Shown: in pieces, positions 2,854-59,284 of the stretch | Layout: each line of letters opens with the position of its first letter | Numbering within the stretch: position 1 is the first letter of the stretch | Sequence record: PZ386957.1 | DNA length: 64,000 bases | Source of the DNA: a phage | Strand: one strand, 5' to 3' | The notes under the pieces: model-generated | What the model saw: the letters and a program-made list of their open reading frames with translations, nothing else | Databases searched by the model: none | What the model was told of the DNA's origin: nothing | Program-made: the position numbers and the translations under genes

Positions 2854-2931
2854 TTTAAACCTCCCATATAACAGAAAACGGGGCTAGTATAAAACTAGTC
2901 CCCGTTTGAGTCAACCATTATTTCTTAAAAA

Positions 2932-4983
2932 TTACATTTTAAATTTATCTGGCATTGCGTCTACAGATACCAGATCAGCAATAAGCTGGCGTAGAGTTGC
3001 TTTGTCTGCTTTCTTGCGTTCTGTCTTAGCTTCGGTAATAAAGCTGGAGAAAGACAGGTCAGAAGCAGGTTTAACAACACCTTCACGGATGAATGCATCA
3101 CCGTCCGCGATCATCTCGCCAGATTCTTGTAATGCTGCCAGTTCATTTTTGGTCATAATATGTGCCTCAATGTAATAAGTTTCTTGTGAATCCGTCGATG
3201 CCGTAGCACGAGTTACCGTATCAAAGGATAACACAACACCGCGAGGAAGTAAAATCTCGCATTCTTTGTAAGCAAATGCTTTGTTACCTACTGGCAATAC
3301 AGGGATGTTTTCCGCGCCAGCAATGGAGAAAGCAACATTAGCGCCACCTTCACCGCGAGATCCAGCCATAGAATCAACACCAGCAACGGCACTAGCCACG
3401 TTTGCATTCCAGCCACCAAAGATATTAGGTGCAAGGGATGTGCTCACATAGTTTTTAAAGTAAAACGCTTTTTGCTTACGTGCAGTTTCCCACATTTGCG
3501 ACCGGAAGTCCATACCACGATACAGAATAGTACCCGGATCAAGTTTAACTCCATAGTTAGCGAAGGCATTATCCAGTGCATCACACATCTTGACCAATTC
3601 TTCTGGATCTGCTACACCTTCAAACTCTTCCAGTTTTCGATCTGTCAGGAAGTTGTTCATGTTAATGTATGCTGCATCGGCGTATTCGCTTAATACAAAA
3701 CCTTCCGCACCTGGTAGGTCAAGATCAATATCTGCCATCATTTCACCCATGTTGCTAGCAATTGCTTCAAACATACCGGAAGCAACATTACGCAGGGCAT
3801 CGGTTTTAATCTGGGTGATATGACTACGCAGCATTTCAGCTTTTATGTCTGCTGGCATAGCCGGATCTACTCGGTCCATTGCAAGGGCAGTGATCTTGTT
3901 TTCGAATACTTCCTCGCTCATGATTTCTTTTAAGCGTTTAATTGATGCCGCGATAACTTCCGCAGACAACGGATCATATTGGTCCTGAACTTTTACCAGT
4001 TCACTTACTGCGTATTTTGCATCGGCTTCGCTTTCAAAGATAGTACGCATAAAGCCATAGCGAGTGATAATATCACTTGTCCAGTCATTCAAAGAACGGG
4101 CGGTTGAACGTTCTAAGGCTTGACGATCGATCAGAGTATTAAACTGTTTCTTCGGTTCCGCTTCGGTAATGTCTTCTTCCGGTTTAAGATTAATTTTTTC
4201 TGGATGATTGACATAATCACCGTTATATGTCGCTTGAGTTTTCAGCATTTCTTCTTTAGTCAAACGAGATTTAGCCGCTACGCGTTGTTCCGCTTCCGCG
4301 TTTCGTTCTTCTTCTGCTGCAAGGCTAGCCGCATATGCTTCATCTTTAGTAAGAGATTCGCCAGTAGCTTTAGATACCCAGCGATCACCTAAATCACTTT
4401 CTACTTTAGTGAACAAGGACTCATCCAGTTTAATCCCTTTAATCTTATCAATCGCCATCCCTCGACGCTTGACAACAACTAAAGCGATCTTTTTGCTGGT
4501 CATTACTTCCTGCTGGAATACTTCAAACTTCGGAGTACGACGCACTAAACGCTCTATAACTCGTTTAACCAGTTCGGTCTTGCCTTTCATACGGGAAACA
4601 TTAAAACGGAACATAACAGCGTCTAATTGAGCTTTACGGGCGGTTTCCATCACCACATCAAAAGCACTTGCCATAACAGCAATCGGGTTATCGCCTAGAC
4701 CATTTTTAAGCTGTACAATTCGACCGCTTTTATTCATCTCACACAGGACCACATGCGCGGTTTTATCACCCACGCGAATAATTTTAGGTGTTTTGTTGGT
4801 GAAGTTGCAAAGACGAACAATCACATCTTTATCGCGTGTCTGTACTGCAAAAAGCTGTTTTGGGTTCTGCTTCGGCTTTAGGCACTGTACAGGGGCAATG
4901 CTACCAAAGTTTTCTTCCTCTTCTGTTAACAGCCATTTCTCAAAAGATTCAATCATTAGATCGTCGATTTCTAAGTTAAACAT
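2932..4983 (-). CDS. alt: ADP-ribosyltransferase Alt (packaged, modifies host RNA polymerase)
   Basis: 683 aa (T4 Alt 682 aa); C-terminal ART motifs YRGMDF / YVSTSL / KECEILLP; located after gene 54 as in T4. Confidence 0.85.
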   Translation of the reverse strand: MFNLEIDDLMIESFEKWLLTEEEENFGSIAPVQCLKPKQNPKQLFAVQTRDKDVIVRLCNFTNKTPKIIRVGDKTAHVVLCEMNKSGRIVQLKNGLGDNPIAVMASAFDVVMETARKAQLDAVMFRFNVSRMKGKTELVKRVIERLVRRTPKFEVFQQEVMTSKKIALVVVKRRGMAIDKIKGIKLDESLFTKVESDLGDRWVSKATGESLTKDEAYAASLAAEEERNAEAEQRVAAKSRLTKEEMLKTQATYNGDYVNHPEKINLKPEEDITEAEPKKQFNTLIDRQALERSTARSLNDWTSDIITRYGFMRTIFESEADAKYAVSELVKVQDQYDPLSAEVIAASIKRLKEIMSEEVFENKITALAMDRVDPAMPADIKAEMLRSHITQIKTDALRNVASGMFEAIASNMGEMMADIDLDLPGAEGFVLSEYADAAYINMNNFLTDRKLEEFEGVADPEELVKMCDALDNAFANYGVKLDPGTILYRGMDFRSQMWETARKQKAFYFKNYVSTSLAPNIFGGWNANVASAVAGVDSMAGSRGEGGANVAFSIAGAENIPVLPVGNKAFAYKECEILLPRGVVLSFDTVTRATASTDSQETYYIEAHIMTKNELAALQESGEMIADGDAFIREGVVKPASDLSFSSFITEAKTERKKADKATLRQLIADLVSVDAMPDKFKM

Positions 4984-55924: not shown

Positions 55925-56305
55925 TTAATCTTTTTTCAGTGCATCCATTACTCGCTCTGCGATCAGTTCTCTTAAGCACTGATAACCATGATATTTGATT
56001 GCAATGTCACGCAGATCATTAACCAGTTCCCGTACTTCATGGTCTTTCAAATCGTCTCTGTATTTCGATTTAACCGTGTCTTTAGGTGGATTGCGGATAA
56101 CCTGAAAACCTTGTTCTGCAATCACTGCGGCTTCTCGTTGGCGTTCATGCTGTACGGTGTTTTTGATCAAATCAGCTTCCATGAACTTTAATACATTAGC
56201 CATCATATTACCTTTCTTACTCATTGTTAAATCCTCATAAAATAAAAGGGAGACTCTCATTATAGAGAATCTCCCTTGTATGTCAAGTGTTATGATTGCA
56301 TCCAA
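55925..56305 (-). CDS. hypothetical protein
   Basis: 126 aa ORF. Confidence 0.4.
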   Translation of the reverse strand: MDAIITLDIQGRFSIMRVSLLFYEDLTMSKKGNMMANVLKFMEADLIKNTVQHERQREAAVIAEQGFQVIRNPPKDTVKSKYRDDLKDHEVRELVNDLRDIAIKYHGYQCLRELIAERVMDALKKD

Positions 56306-56815
56306 TCACGGCGTAAACTTGGATCATCGCCGTAGAGCATATCGAATAGCTCTTTGTAATTTTCTGGTAAAGTGATAATTTCCGTAACTGGTTCGTTAAT
56401 CACCTTGTGATAGTCTGATTCAGTCAAAGATGCCAACCCTTTGATGTATCGAATGTTATAACCTTTGATGTTATCACGGTCGGCTTCAAAGTCGTCAAGG
56501 CTATAGTACCAGCGTACATCATCACCTTTCTTTGGTTCCGCAATGATAATAGGTGTTTTCACAAACTTAATTCTACCTTCCTCGAACATTTCAGGCCAGC
56601 GAGCAAAGAAAGAAATAAGAGACGGTTTAATAGACCCTAAGCCAATAATCTCGATGTAAAGTTAGTTAGCCCGAAGGCTAACCATCGGTATCTGCGTCAG
56701 TCATTATCGCGATGTTTTTATACATTGTCGTTGGAGTCCGACGACGGCGTACATTCGTTTGCGCTTTGTATGCTACCATGTTCACATTCTGTGTGTCGAT
56801 TTTCTTTAATTTCAT
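56290..56815 (-). CDS. 60: DNA topoisomerase II subunit gp60 expressed by programmed translational bypass: join(56815..56681, 56640..56290), ~161 aa
   Basis: 5' segment MKLKKIDTQNVNMVAYKAQTNVRRRRTPTTMYKNIAIMTDADTDG ends at GGT followed by TAG in a hairpin; after a 37-nt gap, GGC-TTA-GGG resumes in the +1 frame as LGSIKPSLISFFARWPEMFEEGRIKFVKTP..., parallel to T4 gp60 as recalled. Confidence 0.7.
56664..56683 (-). promoter_or_regulatory. take-off stem-loop of the bypass element (GGU take-off codon + UAG stop in stem, UUCG tetraloop)
   Basis: mRNA 5'-GGUUAGCC-UUCG-GGCUAACU-3': 7 Watson-Crick pairs plus a G-U; landing codon GGC at 56641..56643 with GAG 6 nt upstream. Confidence 0.65.
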
Positions 56816-57650
56816 CGATATACCTCACTAATTCTTCGTCATTATATGGATTATAACCATCTTTAAATCTGTCAAACATCTTAACGACCGATTTTCTAGG
56901 ACAGCTAAGGTTTAACGCTTTATGACATTTAGCCGCGCCAGTAGCTTTAAATCGATTAGGATCGTAGTTTGACACAAACCAATCATAAATGTCAATCGTG
57001 TGGATAATCGCTTCTTTTGGTGTTAATGGTTGTTTATACCATTTCATGCTACGCATTACAGCAGCACCAGCAAGAGACGCTTTTCTAATTAATTCTTTGT
57101 TGTGTTTGTTTATTCCGTAGAACTCACCTGATAGAACAAGCGGATCATCGACCGCTAATTGTCTACGTTCGCCTTTATCGTTGATATAGATTGTTCTGCC
57201 TTTTGCTTTCTTATTATCAAAGTGTCGGCCTTTATTCAGTCCTACATAAAGATCCTTGTTTTGTTTGTATTCCTCTTTAGAAATTATAACACATTTACCA
57301 TCACTGACGCGTTTAACAGACAAACGACCTACCATCATTTCTTTAGAGAAGTTGGAAACTACTGTTCTATGTTGTTCTCTCGCGAATTGGTACATTGCAC
57401 CTGTCTTATATTTTCCGCTATTTGTCATGCGGTTTAAGGCGTAGTGCATTTTTCTGTTGTTATAAATCTTGGTTAACAGTATATGAGCAAGAAAGTGCTC
57501 TCTATATGTAAACGAAACAAGATTGGAATCGTCATCACTCCCACCCATAGATTTGGGTAGGATGTGATGAACTTCGATACCTTTATCACGAACGAGACCT
57601 CGTAACCGGCCTTTTTCTACTAGTTGGTTATAGATCTTTTGATAATTCAT
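56718..57650 (-). CDS. mobA-like HNH homing endonuclease inserted between topoisomerase genes 39 and 60
   Basis: HNH motif GIEVHHILPKSMGGSDDDSNLVSFTYREHFLAH; 310 aa; 3' end overlaps the gp60 5' segment in another frame. Confidence 0.75.
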   Translation of the reverse strand: MNYQKIYNQLVEKGRLRGLVRDKGIEVHHILPKSMGGSDDDSNLVSFTYREHFLAHILLTKIYNNRKMHYALNRMTNSGKYKTGAMYQFAREQHRTVVSNFSKEMMVGRLSVKRVSDGKCVIISKEEYKQNKDLYVGLNKGRHFDNKKAKGRTIYINDKGERRQLAVDDPLVLSGEFYGINKHNKELIRKASLAGAAVMRSMKWYKQPLTPKEAIIHTIDIYDWFVSNYDPNRFKATGAAKCHKALNLSCPRKSVVKMFDRFKDGYNPYNDEELVRYIDEIKENRHTECEHGSIQSANECTPSSDSNDNV

Positions 57651-59185
57651 AACATTCTCTTAACCTCCACCCATTCACCGTTAATCAATACTTCATCGTT
57701 AATATTAACAATAATTTTCTCACCTTGCAAGTCTAGCTCGAAAAACTCACCATCTACCATTTCTTCGGAGGTGGGAACACCAAACTGTAAACCAGTGATC
57801 GCCATAATGTTAAAAATTTCGGCATTTTTAACAATTGCAGTTTCTGGTTGTCCCCACGTTGTAAGAGTTTTACCTCGCAACGGGAAACCGCCATGTAAAT
57901 CTTGATCACGTACAGAGATCAGATAGTTGATCGCGGAATCACCTTCCGTCAAAAACAGGGTAGTTTCTGCGTCAGTTCCAATAAGGTTAGCTTTAACGTG
58001 TTTTGCTACCTTAGCCCGTTTTGCTGCCTTTGCTGCCTTAGTCGCTGCCGCTTTATCTGCTGCCTCTTTGCGTGCCAATACGACCGCGATAATAGGCATG
58101 ATAATATTTTCTTTCTTCGCAATGACTTTAGCCAGCTTTTTAAAATCCAGATCAATGTGACGCTTGATATCACCAGTAGGGTTAGTCAAACGTTCTTTCG
58201 TCTGGGAATCAAAACGCAAGTTAGGCAATTCACGAACAATCAAAATACAGGTCAAACCAGACTTAACCGCAGCTTTAGTAACATCAACTTTATATTCTTT
58301 CTTGATTCGTTTTACAATTTCCTCACATAGATCATCTGTTACATAGTCTACGTGTGTTCCCCCGTTTTTGGTAAACAGACCATTAGCAAAGGATACTGAT
58401 TTAAAACCTTCACCTTCAACCGCAGGAACTAGAGCAAGTGAAAAGTTTTTATCCTCGATGACAAACGGATCATCATTGTAGAGTTTAGCATACTCTTTGA
58501 ACTTGCTGGTGATTCTCTTTCCGTTAAACTTAAACGTGATTTTAGGAAAGATAACACTCAAAGAATACAGACGGTCACAAATCACATCTGCAATCTCTTG
58601 TGACATAATCATCCCTTCAAAATGATCAAAATCAGGACAAAATGTAACCTTTGTTCCCTTTAATTTTGATGGCTTAGATGACCATGTAATATTTTCCGCA
58701 CCGTTGGTACATTGTACGGTTAATTCATTCTCGCCATCGCACGTTACACCCGTAAACCATGCGGAGAAGTATGCAGTTAACGCGCTGCCGATCCCATTCA
58801 TTCCCATAGTAACGCGGTTGGTATCATCAAAGTTAGATCCGGCTTTAGCTCGTGTCCATGCAGCGACTGGTTGCGGGATCTGTTTTCCTTCCGGTGTCGT
58901 TACGATATGTTGAGGAATACCGCGACCATTATCCGTTACCGATACAATGTTATCTTGAATATCTACGCTGATTACATTAGCAAAATCAAAATTTGTTCGG
59001 ATTGCTTCGTCTACAGAGTTGTCGATGATCTCATCGATGATTTTAACTAGCCCAGGAACATATGATACAGTTGTCCATTTACCATACAGGAATCTATTAT
59101 GTGATTCGTATGTAGTAGACCCGATATACATCGATGGTCTCTTAAGGCAGTGAGCACGATCATCTAAGAGTAAAAATTCACTCAT
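57647..59185 (-). CDS. 39: DNA topoisomerase II large subunit gp39 (GyrB-like ATPase + start of Toprim)
   Basis: 512 aa; GHKL ATPase N-terminus; Toprim glutamate motif LTEGDSA near the C-terminus; the Toprim DxD motif (IMTDADTDG) is in downstream gene 60. Confidence 0.8.
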   Translation of the reverse strand: MSEFLLLDDRAHCLKRPSMYIGSTTYESHNRFLYGKWTTVSYVPGLVKIIDEIIDNSVDEAIRTNFDFANVISVDIQDNIVSVTDNGRGIPQHIVTTPEGKQIPQPVAAWTRAKAGSNFDDTNRVTMGMNGIGSALTAYFSAWFTGVTCDGENELTVQCTNGAENITWSSKPSKLKGTKVTFCPDFDHFEGMIMSQEIADVICDRLYSLSVIFPKITFKFNGKRITSKFKEYAKLYNDDPFVIEDKNFSLALVPAVEGEGFKSVSFANGLFTKNGGTHVDYVTDDLCEEIVKRIKKEYKVDVTKAAVKSGLTCILIVRELPNLRFDSQTKERLTNPTGDIKRHIDLDFKKLAKVIAKKENIIMPIIAVVLARKEAADKAAATKAAKAAKRAKVAKHVKANLIGTDAETTLFLTEGDSAINYLISVRDQDLHGGFPLRGKTLTTWGQPETAIVKNAEIFNIMAITGLQFGVPTSEEMVDGEFFELDLQGEKIIVNINDEVLINGEWVEVKRML

Positions 59186-59284
59186 TATTAAACCTCTTCA
59201 TAACATATCCATAACTTACTGCAACCGACACAAAGACGGCTGCAACAATCATATTAAAAATTGAGTGATTGTCAAGTATATGAC

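Follow-up and report, generated by a model that had tools for sequence, protein, structure and literature searches.

A MobA element with a probable gene 60-type translational bypass in the topoisomerase gene of a Krischvirus (RB49-like) coliphage

Here we describe a topoisomerase locus in 64,000 nucleotides (nt) of phage DNA from sequence record PZ386957.1 (the window), in which the gene for the large subunit of topoisomerase II is split into gene 39 and gene 60 with a mobA-type HNH homing endonuclease gene between them. Gene 60 is itself interrupted by a short gap that ribosomes would very probably bypass, as they do in phage T4. A sequence-only reading had proposed this layout, and its coordinates and sequences for the split gene were confirmed. 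The features described here lie on the minus strand and are numbered as in the window. The gene 39 open reading frame (ORF; 59185..57647) is the first piece of the large subunit. Its host-derived part, residues 1-470 (57776..59185), holds the GHKL ATPase, the GyrB transducer and the first half of the Toprim domain, and is followed by a C-terminal extension (CTE) of 42 amino acids (aa; PTSEEMVDGEFFELDLQGEKIIVNINDEVLINGEWVEVKRML, then the stop; 57647..57775) assigned to the mobile element by its homology with other CTEs. The mobA ortholog (56718..57650) encodes an intact HNH homing endonuclease of 310 aa, identified by tblastn, PHROG profiles and full-length alignment. Its ATG overlaps the gene 39 stop codon (ATGA), and at its other end it runs for 98 nt into the beginning of gene 60, in a different frame.

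Gene 60 opens with an ORF of 45 codons (ATG at 56815, with a GAGG Shine-Dalgarno sequence 7 nt upstream) that reads MKLKKIDTQNVNMVAYKAQTNVRRRRTPTTMYKNIAIMTDADTDG. Codons 1-30 form the unique part of its N-terminal extension (NTE; MKLKKIDTQNVNMVAYKAQTNVRRRRTPTT; 56726..56815), the region of the nascent-peptide signal, and are followed by HomR (MYKNIAIMTDADTDG; 56681..56725), an element-borne copy of Toprim sequence with ~80% nucleotide identity to RB49 ATACAAAAATATTGCGATTATGACAGACGCTGATACTGA. The final sense codon, GGU (Gly45; 56681..56683), stands at the position of T4 Gly46; it is the putative take-off codon and is followed immediately by an in-frame UAG (56680-56678), with which the coding gap of 37 nt begins (UAGCCUUCGGGCUAACUAACUUUACAUCGAGAUUAUU; 56644..56680). 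Beyond the gap lie the putative landing codon GGC (56641..56643) and a 3' segment of 116 in-frame codons plus a stop at 56292-56290 (LGSIKPS...DWMQS; 56290..56640), which encodes the second half of the Toprim domain and TOPRIM_C. A stem-loop (56663..56684), GGUUAGCC-UUCG-GGCUAACU with its tetraloop at 56675-56672, holds both the take-off codon and the stop, and a GAG that could serve as a mini Shine-Dalgarno sequence is found 6 nt 5' of the landing codon (56650..56652). The 45-codon segment, the two Gly codons, the gap, the hairpin and the GAG had been proposed from the letters of the window; the codons, the gap length and the GAG (56652-56650) were found as proposed, and the hairpin was recovered by folding. 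Downstream of the hairpin the gap is 76% A+U and has no GGN triplet. It had also been claimed that stops close all three frames between the two Gly codons. This stands for frame 0, closed by TAG and TAA, and for the landing (+1) frame, closed by TAA at 56664-56662, but the third frame has no stop within the gap and is closed only 2 nt beyond the landing codon. Despite this correction, the conclusion that a single frameshift is unable to join the halves holds.

The 19 kb around the locus match Krischvirus (RB49-like) coliphages at ~92% identity, and in these phages the large topoisomerase subunit is encoded by one unbroken gene. The HNH gene and the interrupted segment were absent from all 55-69 matching phage records, and similarity to these stops at the landing site. 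Comparison with RB49, GEC-3S and SSG23 places an insertion of ~1138 nt at 57775..~56638: the alignment is lost after ...TTTGGTGTT (57776) and is picked up again at GGGTCTATTAAACC, directly past GGC TTA (56643-56638). Some 63 nt of host sequence (codons DALDVMQYKNIAIMTDADTDG) have been lost, and the 45-nt HomR stands in for it at the end of the insert, with the host codons for DALDVMQ missing from this region. The insertion site is the same as in other clades, after ...GV and just past the glycine of DxDxDG, with a deletion of host sequence in the 55-75-nt range. The host part of gene 39 shares 89% aa identity with residues 1-476 of RB49 gp39 and matches Pfam HATPase_c and DNA_gyraseB, whereas the unsplit Krischvirus genes lack the CTE. 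The 161-aa product of the joined halves matches residues 478-607 of RB49 gp39 in an ungapped alignment at 85% identity, and the PHROG profiles for gp60 and for the full-length subunit run over the conceptual junction in one stretch (phrog_7229, 1-160).

Identity is uneven along the gene. When the window, RB49 and the hop-bearing metagenomic phage L018 are compared in pairs, each of the three pairs shows only ~70-85% identity over the 5' third of gene 39 (59193-58474) and the 3' part of gene 60 (56673-56195), whereas identity is ~83-100%, and mostly at least 90%, over the central part of gene 39 (58473-57874) and the genes on either side (flanks 60150-59194 and 56088-55400). By these identities the topoisomerase gene is a hot spot of mosaicism. 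A co-conversion tract from a foreign donor was considered for the divergent sequence flanking the insert, but no such conclusion was drawn because the gene is divergent in all three comparisons and not only beside the insert.

When the region is aligned with T4 gene 60 and T4-like 39/60 loci, every part has a homologous counterpart. The comparison set comprised T4 gene 39/mobA/gene 60, S16, KARL-1, fHyAci03, Pm5461, Thanatos-1 and one Aeromonas phage. The tail of gp39 (...DGEFFELDLQGEKIIVNINDEVLINGEWVEVKRML) is homologous to the CTEs of seven other elements, among them T4T, S16, KARL-1, Pm5461, Thanatos-1 and the Aeromonas phage, with the common motif DGxW/F...IVNxNDExxIxGxW. The 45-aa NTE aligns with those of nine other elements, with Y16, Q19, R24, Y32 and IAIMTDAD invariant and V22 and R23 nearly so. 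It has every one of the residues Y16, Q19, V22, R24, Y33, M39 and T40 (T4 numbering) that are listed as conserved or functionally implicated in Manning and Atkins (bioRxiv 10.1101/2022.08.31.505936). It matches phrog_19082 over 1-45 of 45 positions, and an exhaustive search with an NTE profile returned 38 clusters at 50% identity, about 30 of which are short ORFs ending in ...DxD(G), the take-off position. The gap has two words in common with T4, a 14-nt TAGCCTTCGGGCTA at its start and GAGATTATTGG, and it ends as in T4 with GAGATTATT-GGN-TTA-GG. In a nucleotide search with the NTE and gap, the closest match was the Acinetobacter-phage clade 5 (68-69% identity over 98% of the query). The structure of the locus is far beyond chance by these comparisons, because the NTE's own profile reaches ~E=1e-20 against the homologs in its cluster, the gap words are common to T4 and the junction aligns ungapped to RB49 gp39.

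An interrupted reading frame beside a homing endonuclease gene might suggest an intron carrying the endonuclease. This candidate was rejected: the interruption is just 37 nt, mobA is free-standing outside it, and an Rfam scan of 56200-57900 found neither an intron nor a family for the hop. More broadly, the 37 nt could be taken out of the RNA ahead of translation by splicing, editing or processing, a generic alternative for any interrupted ORF for which nothing specific speaks here. It is scarcely credible, given that 37 nt is far under the size of a group I or group II intron and that the conserved signals (the stop, the matched codons, the nascent peptide and the mini Shine-Dalgarno sequence) are translational. 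The homologous gap in T4, moreover, stays in the mRNA and is bypassed by ribosomes according to the literature.

The endonuclease points to the same family of elements. The best tblastn matches of mobA are HNH genes between split topoisomerase halves in Aeromonas, Acinetobacter, Proteus and T4-like phages (37-41% identity, E values of 1e-43 to 5e-64). The protein aligns end to end with other MobA proteins, including the non-HNH C-terminal region, at 34-42% identity with 42 invariant columns, among them the EVHHI...N...H core. It matches the phrog_655 homing endonuclease (E=4e-51), while its Pfam HNH match of 20.4 bits falls just under the curated 21.4-bit cut-off. A word-indexed protein search with MobA returned one match only, though tblastn finds hundreds of homologs, and this single match therefore reflects the sensitivity limit of that search and not rarity. 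At 310 aa the protein is longer than published MobA proteins (269-279 aa), and its gene overlaps the NTE by 98 nt compared with a published 8-32 nt. The frame reads on past the gene 60 ATG (56718-56815) into a tail of ~22-26 aa (...RHTECEHGSIQSANECTPSSDSNDNV) with no counterpart in other MobAs, and its TAA stop sits within the HomR codons ATG TAT AAA; a related metagenomic copy described below also has 310 aa. A T4-type MobA acting on T2 nicks the insert-free allele and mobilises the cassette, with the gap shielding the carrier from cleavage, according to the cited literature, and the mobility of the T4 element has been shown by Bonocora et al. (2011; as cited in bioRxiv 10.1101/2022.08.31.505936). 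The MobA of the window phage has an intact ORF and may likewise be active; by analogy with T4, the gap, as DNA, would probably keep the genome that carries it safe from this endonuclease as well.

The take-off hairpin has a stem of 9 bp (U-A, G.U and seven Watson-Crick pairs) closed by the UUCG loop, with the take-off codon and UAG in its 5' arm. Both the minimum free energy (MFE) fold and the centroid fold contain it, in the window as in its relatives, and it is predicted for every homolog. Covariation was tested with slid and shuffled controls on eight sequences that represent six clades and were aligned without gaps. In this alignment 95% of cells pair, compared with at most 45% in the slid controls, and four of the ten pairs change on both sides. 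None of 500 shuffles reached the observed covariation score. The pair at the third base of the take-off codon, for example, is A-U in T4, U-A in the window and G-C in Pm5461. A further pairing is seen in the MFE fold of the window, in which CGAUG (56687-56683), whose last base is the first G of the take-off codon, pairs with CAUCG (56656-56652), directly before the GAG, and lengthens the hairpin below an 8-nt bulge. A similar 4-bp GAUG/CAUC pairing is possible in the metagenomic contig L012 but is not part of its predicted fold, and it is impossible in the 38-nt gap allele; both relatives are described next.

Relatives of the cassette were found in metagenomes only. A protein search led to the Logan contig L012 (SRR7892483), which encodes a MobA 80% identical to that of the window, has a gap of 37 nt and keeps GGT, TAG, the hairpin, GAG and GGC. 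The first 31 nt of the two gaps are identical (0/31 changes), while the neighbouring codons differ at a proportion of synonymous sites (pS) of 0.41-0.54; the gaps differ at four positions, all of them within the 6-nt spacer that separates GAG from GGC. A search with the NTE peptide gave JGI contig L013 and, via its cluster, at least 17 further contigs from Logan and ENA, 10 of which were read. These 11 contigs (L013 and the 10), from 11 different samples or assemblies, have Krischvirus gene order throughout, the longest being 174,881 nt, and carry an allele without mobA (L013, 1350-2100; L015-L024, ~2900-3530) that consists of gp39 with its CTE, 11 nt, a 43-aa NTE and a 38-nt gap (...CTAACTTTTATTCGAGAATATTT). 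For take-off and landing it again has GGT and GGC, then TTA GGG, with the GAG at 7 nt from the landing codon. In this allele the endonuclease is cleanly gone and the hop kept, and the landing frame is open over the whole gap. The GGT/GGC pair is present in 13/13 clade contigs read, that is the window and 12 from independent assemblies.

Exact-pattern scans added little. For viral contigs, TAGCCTTCGGGCTAACTAAC gave no match and the sole match of GAYGGNTAGCCTTCGGGCTA was a 161,989-nt contig; neither GAYGGTTAGCCTTCGGGCTAA in metagenome contigs nor GGTTAGCCTTCGGGCTAACTAAC in genome contigs had an exact match, in scans that, like the viral one, do not cover all public data. This silence is weak evidence because L013 (JGI Ga0074275_113645), which holds GACGGTTAGCCTTCGGGCTAA and so fits the scanned metagenome pattern, was not returned. 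An exact look-up of the window's own proteins likewise gave no match in the collection.

The two gap lengths are informative on decoding. The change from 37 to 38 nt shifts the frame relation of the halves from +1 to +2, yet neither the codon match nor the hairpin, GAG or downstream ORF is lost, which fits frame-independent re-pairing of a peptidyl-tRNA and not frameshifting. A programmed +1 or -1 frameshift would place gap-encoded residues in the junction, such as ...VSLRAN or RLAFGLTNFYSRIF. It could appeal to the downstream ORF lying in the +1 frame in the window, and to the open landing frame of the 38-nt allele, in which a -1 shift could read through and add 13 residues. However, in both the window and L012 the +1 frame is shut by UAA (56664-56662 in the window) and frame 0 by UAG and UAA, and the shift needed would differ between alleles (+1 or -1) with the same sequence signals. 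Nor is the interruption a sequencing or assembly error, because it recurs in 13 contigs and is homologous to that of T4. Taken together, a frameshift or an error has next to no probability.

Both halves of gene 60 and the endonuclease are kept by selection. In clade comparisons, the ratio of non-synonymous to synonymous divergence (dN/dS) of the post-landing segment is 0.04-0.11 at a pS of 0.58-0.71, and that of mobA is 0.10 against the L012 copy. The kept GGT/GGC pair across the 37/38-nt change and this low ratio after the landing site argue for bypassing and not for frameshifting or decay.

Translation of the 3' half could, on the other hand, begin anew near the landing site, with the GAG as a true Shine-Dalgarno sequence, so that gp39, a 45-aa peptide and a 116-aa protein would be made with no hop. 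The GAG is well placed for this, 6 nt upstream of GGC, an in-frame AUU AUU stands just before GGC in the window, and the split gp39/gp60 subunit itself is a precedent for pieces that can reassemble. However, there is no in-frame AUG, GUG or UUG between the in-frame UAA and GGC, and no candidate start codon is conserved, since AUU AUU is replaced by ACA UCU in L012 and by AUA UUU in the 38-nt allele. Starting from the first in-frame AUG (56589) would forfeit 17 conserved residues, and any such start would cut the DxDxDG metal-binding motif from its next residues. Internal initiation also leaves the matched GGU/GGC codons, the stop-in-stem hairpin and the conservation of NTE residues across clades unexplained, and we consider it very improbable.

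Decoding by T4-type bypassing is thus the reading that we hold to be very likely for gene 60. The sequence-only reading had proposed a programmed bypass of this type with a mobA HNH gene, and homology and comparative evidence lend it strong support; actual bypassing in the window phage, like its efficiency, is what we infer from them. The mechanism has been established experimentally for T4 gene 60 in the literature. A MobA element in the Toprim-coding part would have split the gene and supplied the gp39 tail, the HNH endonuclease, the gene 60 N-terminus, HomR and the 37-nt gap. The ribosome would read 45 codons and stall with peptidyl-tRNA-Gly(GCC) on GGU and UAG in the A site, whereupon the nascent peptide (YKAQTNVRRRR...) and the UUCG hairpin would promote dissociation of the anticodon. 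It would then slide over the gap, assisted by pairing of the GAG with 16S rRNA, until the tRNA re-pairs with GGC and decoding resumes at UUA. Both GGU and GGC are read by the E. coli tRNA-Gly(GCC), and the window encodes no tRNA genes. The product would be a 161-aa gp60 with the junction ...DADTDG-LGSIKPS... and a predicted tryptic junction peptide NIAIMTDADTDGLGSIKPSLISFFAR.

Several points weigh against this reading or limit its reach. T4 and S16 have longer stems (10 and 12 bp) than the window (8-9 bp), and the T4 gap exceeds that of the window by 10 nt, which may affect the efficiency of the bypass. Within the 3' arm of the hairpin, gap nt 10-12 form a cognate GGC with UAA next to it, which could abort some ribosomes, like the GGG at 9-11 in T4 mutants. 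The clade is known from three distinct alleles only, and recent gene conversion, rather than selection, could account in part for the 31 nt that are identical in the window and L012. T4 topoisomerase mutants are of the DNA-delay type and not absolute lethals, so the persistence of the phage alone is no proof of expression.

Some of these points could also be taken to describe a decaying relic, with poor bypass or none, a gene 60 that is in effect a pseudogene, and host gyrase or topoisomerase IV serving the phage instead. The weaker stem, the shorter gap, the many relatives without mobA and a topoisomerase that is not strictly essential in T4 would all be in keeping with decay. This is nevertheless very improbable, as the 116 downstream codons are intact in 13/13 contigs with their low dN/dS at near-saturated synonymous divergence, the non-coding gap is more conserved than synonymous sites, and gp39 is intact.

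Candidate signals lie at both ends of the locus. A sigma-70-like promoter, TTGACA-16-TATGAT (59248..59275; 11/12 matches in a consensus scan), lies upstream of gene 39 and is a possible start of a 39-mobA-60 transcript, judged by its consensus match and context. Directly 3' of the gene 60 stop (56246..56286), a sigma-70 promoter sequence that matches the consensus perfectly (TTGACA-16-TATAAT) overlaps a terminator hairpin of 13 bp with its T-run, and the annotation of GEC-3S has the same promoter and terminator pair at the homologous place.

Gene 60 bypassing is a textbook exception to collinear triplet decoding, and natural variants reveal which of its signals are indispensable. The window retains the UUCG hairpin with the stop in its stem, a matched pair of codons, the GAG and the core of the nascent peptide, while it drops 10 nt of the T4 gap, uses another tRNA-Gly and tolerates a 1-nt change in length. 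With E. coli as host, reporter, mass-spectrometry and homing work is possible in the standard organism; if functional, the locus would provide a second, diverged signal for bypassing that can be studied with the ribosomes native to it, with the phage and RB49 as a natural donor and recipient pair. The host range of the MobA element is extended to another genus of Straboviridae, and the mobA-less metagenome relatives document the stage with the endonuclease lost and the hop kept that is known from other clades.

The earlier view that the hop is essentially unique to T4, which would make the window a second example, is outdated. Manning and Atkins (bioRxiv 10.1101/2022.08.31.505936) reported dozens of homologs, with 28 genomic and 13 metagenomic cassettes of the same CTE/MobA/NTE/HomR/gap layout, GGU/GGC pairs in S16, Stupor, Abraxas, MGS1 and MGS12, a 20-nt bypass in Aeromonas phages, and cases in which the endonuclease is lost and the hop retained. 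In MGS1, 37 nt separate GGU and GGC (counted from Table S2, bioRxiv 10.1101/2022.08.31.505936). This survey is cited by a later preprint of the same field, and GenBank records, such as that of fHyAci03, already annotate a probable bypass. Our literature search found no other report of the cassette in Krischvirus, and RB49, Krischvirus and the window's cassette do not appear in the available parts of the text and supplements of the survey (bioRxiv 10.1101/2022.08.31.505936). We therefore regard the locus as a new lineage of a known element and not as a second unique case. It probably represents a previously undescribed MobA/bypass clade in Krischvirus coliphages, with an apparently active MobA, a GGU to GGC bypass over 37 nt, a 9-bp hairpin and a 37/38-nt polymorphism, and would be the sole clade beyond the T4 group whose natural host is E. 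coli. The 2022 picture is unchanged, with one clade added.

Among known systems, T4 (clade 1, a 50-nt bypass) shares with the window the insertion site and the order of gp39 with CTE, mobA, NTE, HomR and gap. It also has UAG after the take-off Gly codon, a CC-UUCG-GG hairpin, the GAG with its spacing (GAGAUUAUU-GGA in T4), the UUA resume codon and an NTE that is 56% identical with Y16, Q19, V22 and R23-R24 kept. As the sequence-only reading had noted, T4 differs in hopping from GGA to GGA over 47 nt, whereas the window would go from GGU to GGC over 37 nt with one tRNA-Gly; the tRNA-Gly is UCC in T4 and GCC in the window, and the stems are 10 and 9 bp. The middle of the T4 gap (AGAAAUACCUCAUAAUUAA) is absent from the window. 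The window MobA, 41% identical, is intact at 310 aa, while that of T4T has 272 aa and the gene is a pseudogene in laboratory T4. mobA and the NTE overlap by 98 nt in the window and by 20 nt in T4, and the hosts of the element are Krischvirus and Tequatrovirus, respectively. The Salmonella phage S16 (Gelderlandvirus, clade 3) has the same GGU/GGC pair, in-frame UAG, UUCG hairpin and intact MobA, but its gap of 45 nt is a multiple of three and so brings no frame change, its stem has 12 bp and its resume codon is ACA; its MobA is 38% and its NTE 58% identical to those of the window.

Short gaps are also found in the Acinetobacter clade 5 (KARL-1, fHyAci03) and in metagenomic MGS1. The KARL-1 gap is 40 nt with ...CUUCGAG, and the 37-nt GGU-GGC gap of MGS1 ends in ...CUUCGAGAUGAUU-GGC-UUA-GG, nearly the 3' end of the window's gap. 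In KARL-1 and fHyAci03, however, take-off is one codon earlier, from GAU to GAC with tRNA-Asp, MGS1 has a hungry AGG codon instead of the in-frame stop and a GNRA loop instead of UUCG, and the clade 5 MobA is 36% identical. The Aeromonas clade 6 (e.g., 60AhydR15PP) has the closest MobA at 42%, with the common insertions ...GINKHNKELIRKA / GINAWNPERTRKA and PY before DEE, but it bypasses ~14 nt between GAC codons with a much reduced hairpin. The byp elements of Magnusiomyces capitatus mitochondria, inserts of 27-55 nt with matched or wobble-related codons for take-off and landing, are an analogy only, as their sequences are unrelated and they work in mitochondrial translation without a Shine-Dalgarno sequence, a stop-in-stem UUCG hairpin or a homing endonuclease. 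By these sequence comparisons the window is an additional, Krischvirus clade of the known element, new only in its host lineage and in a combination of features that recombines known variants, namely a codon pair as in S16, a gap as long as that of MGS1, and a stop and UUCG loop as in T4.

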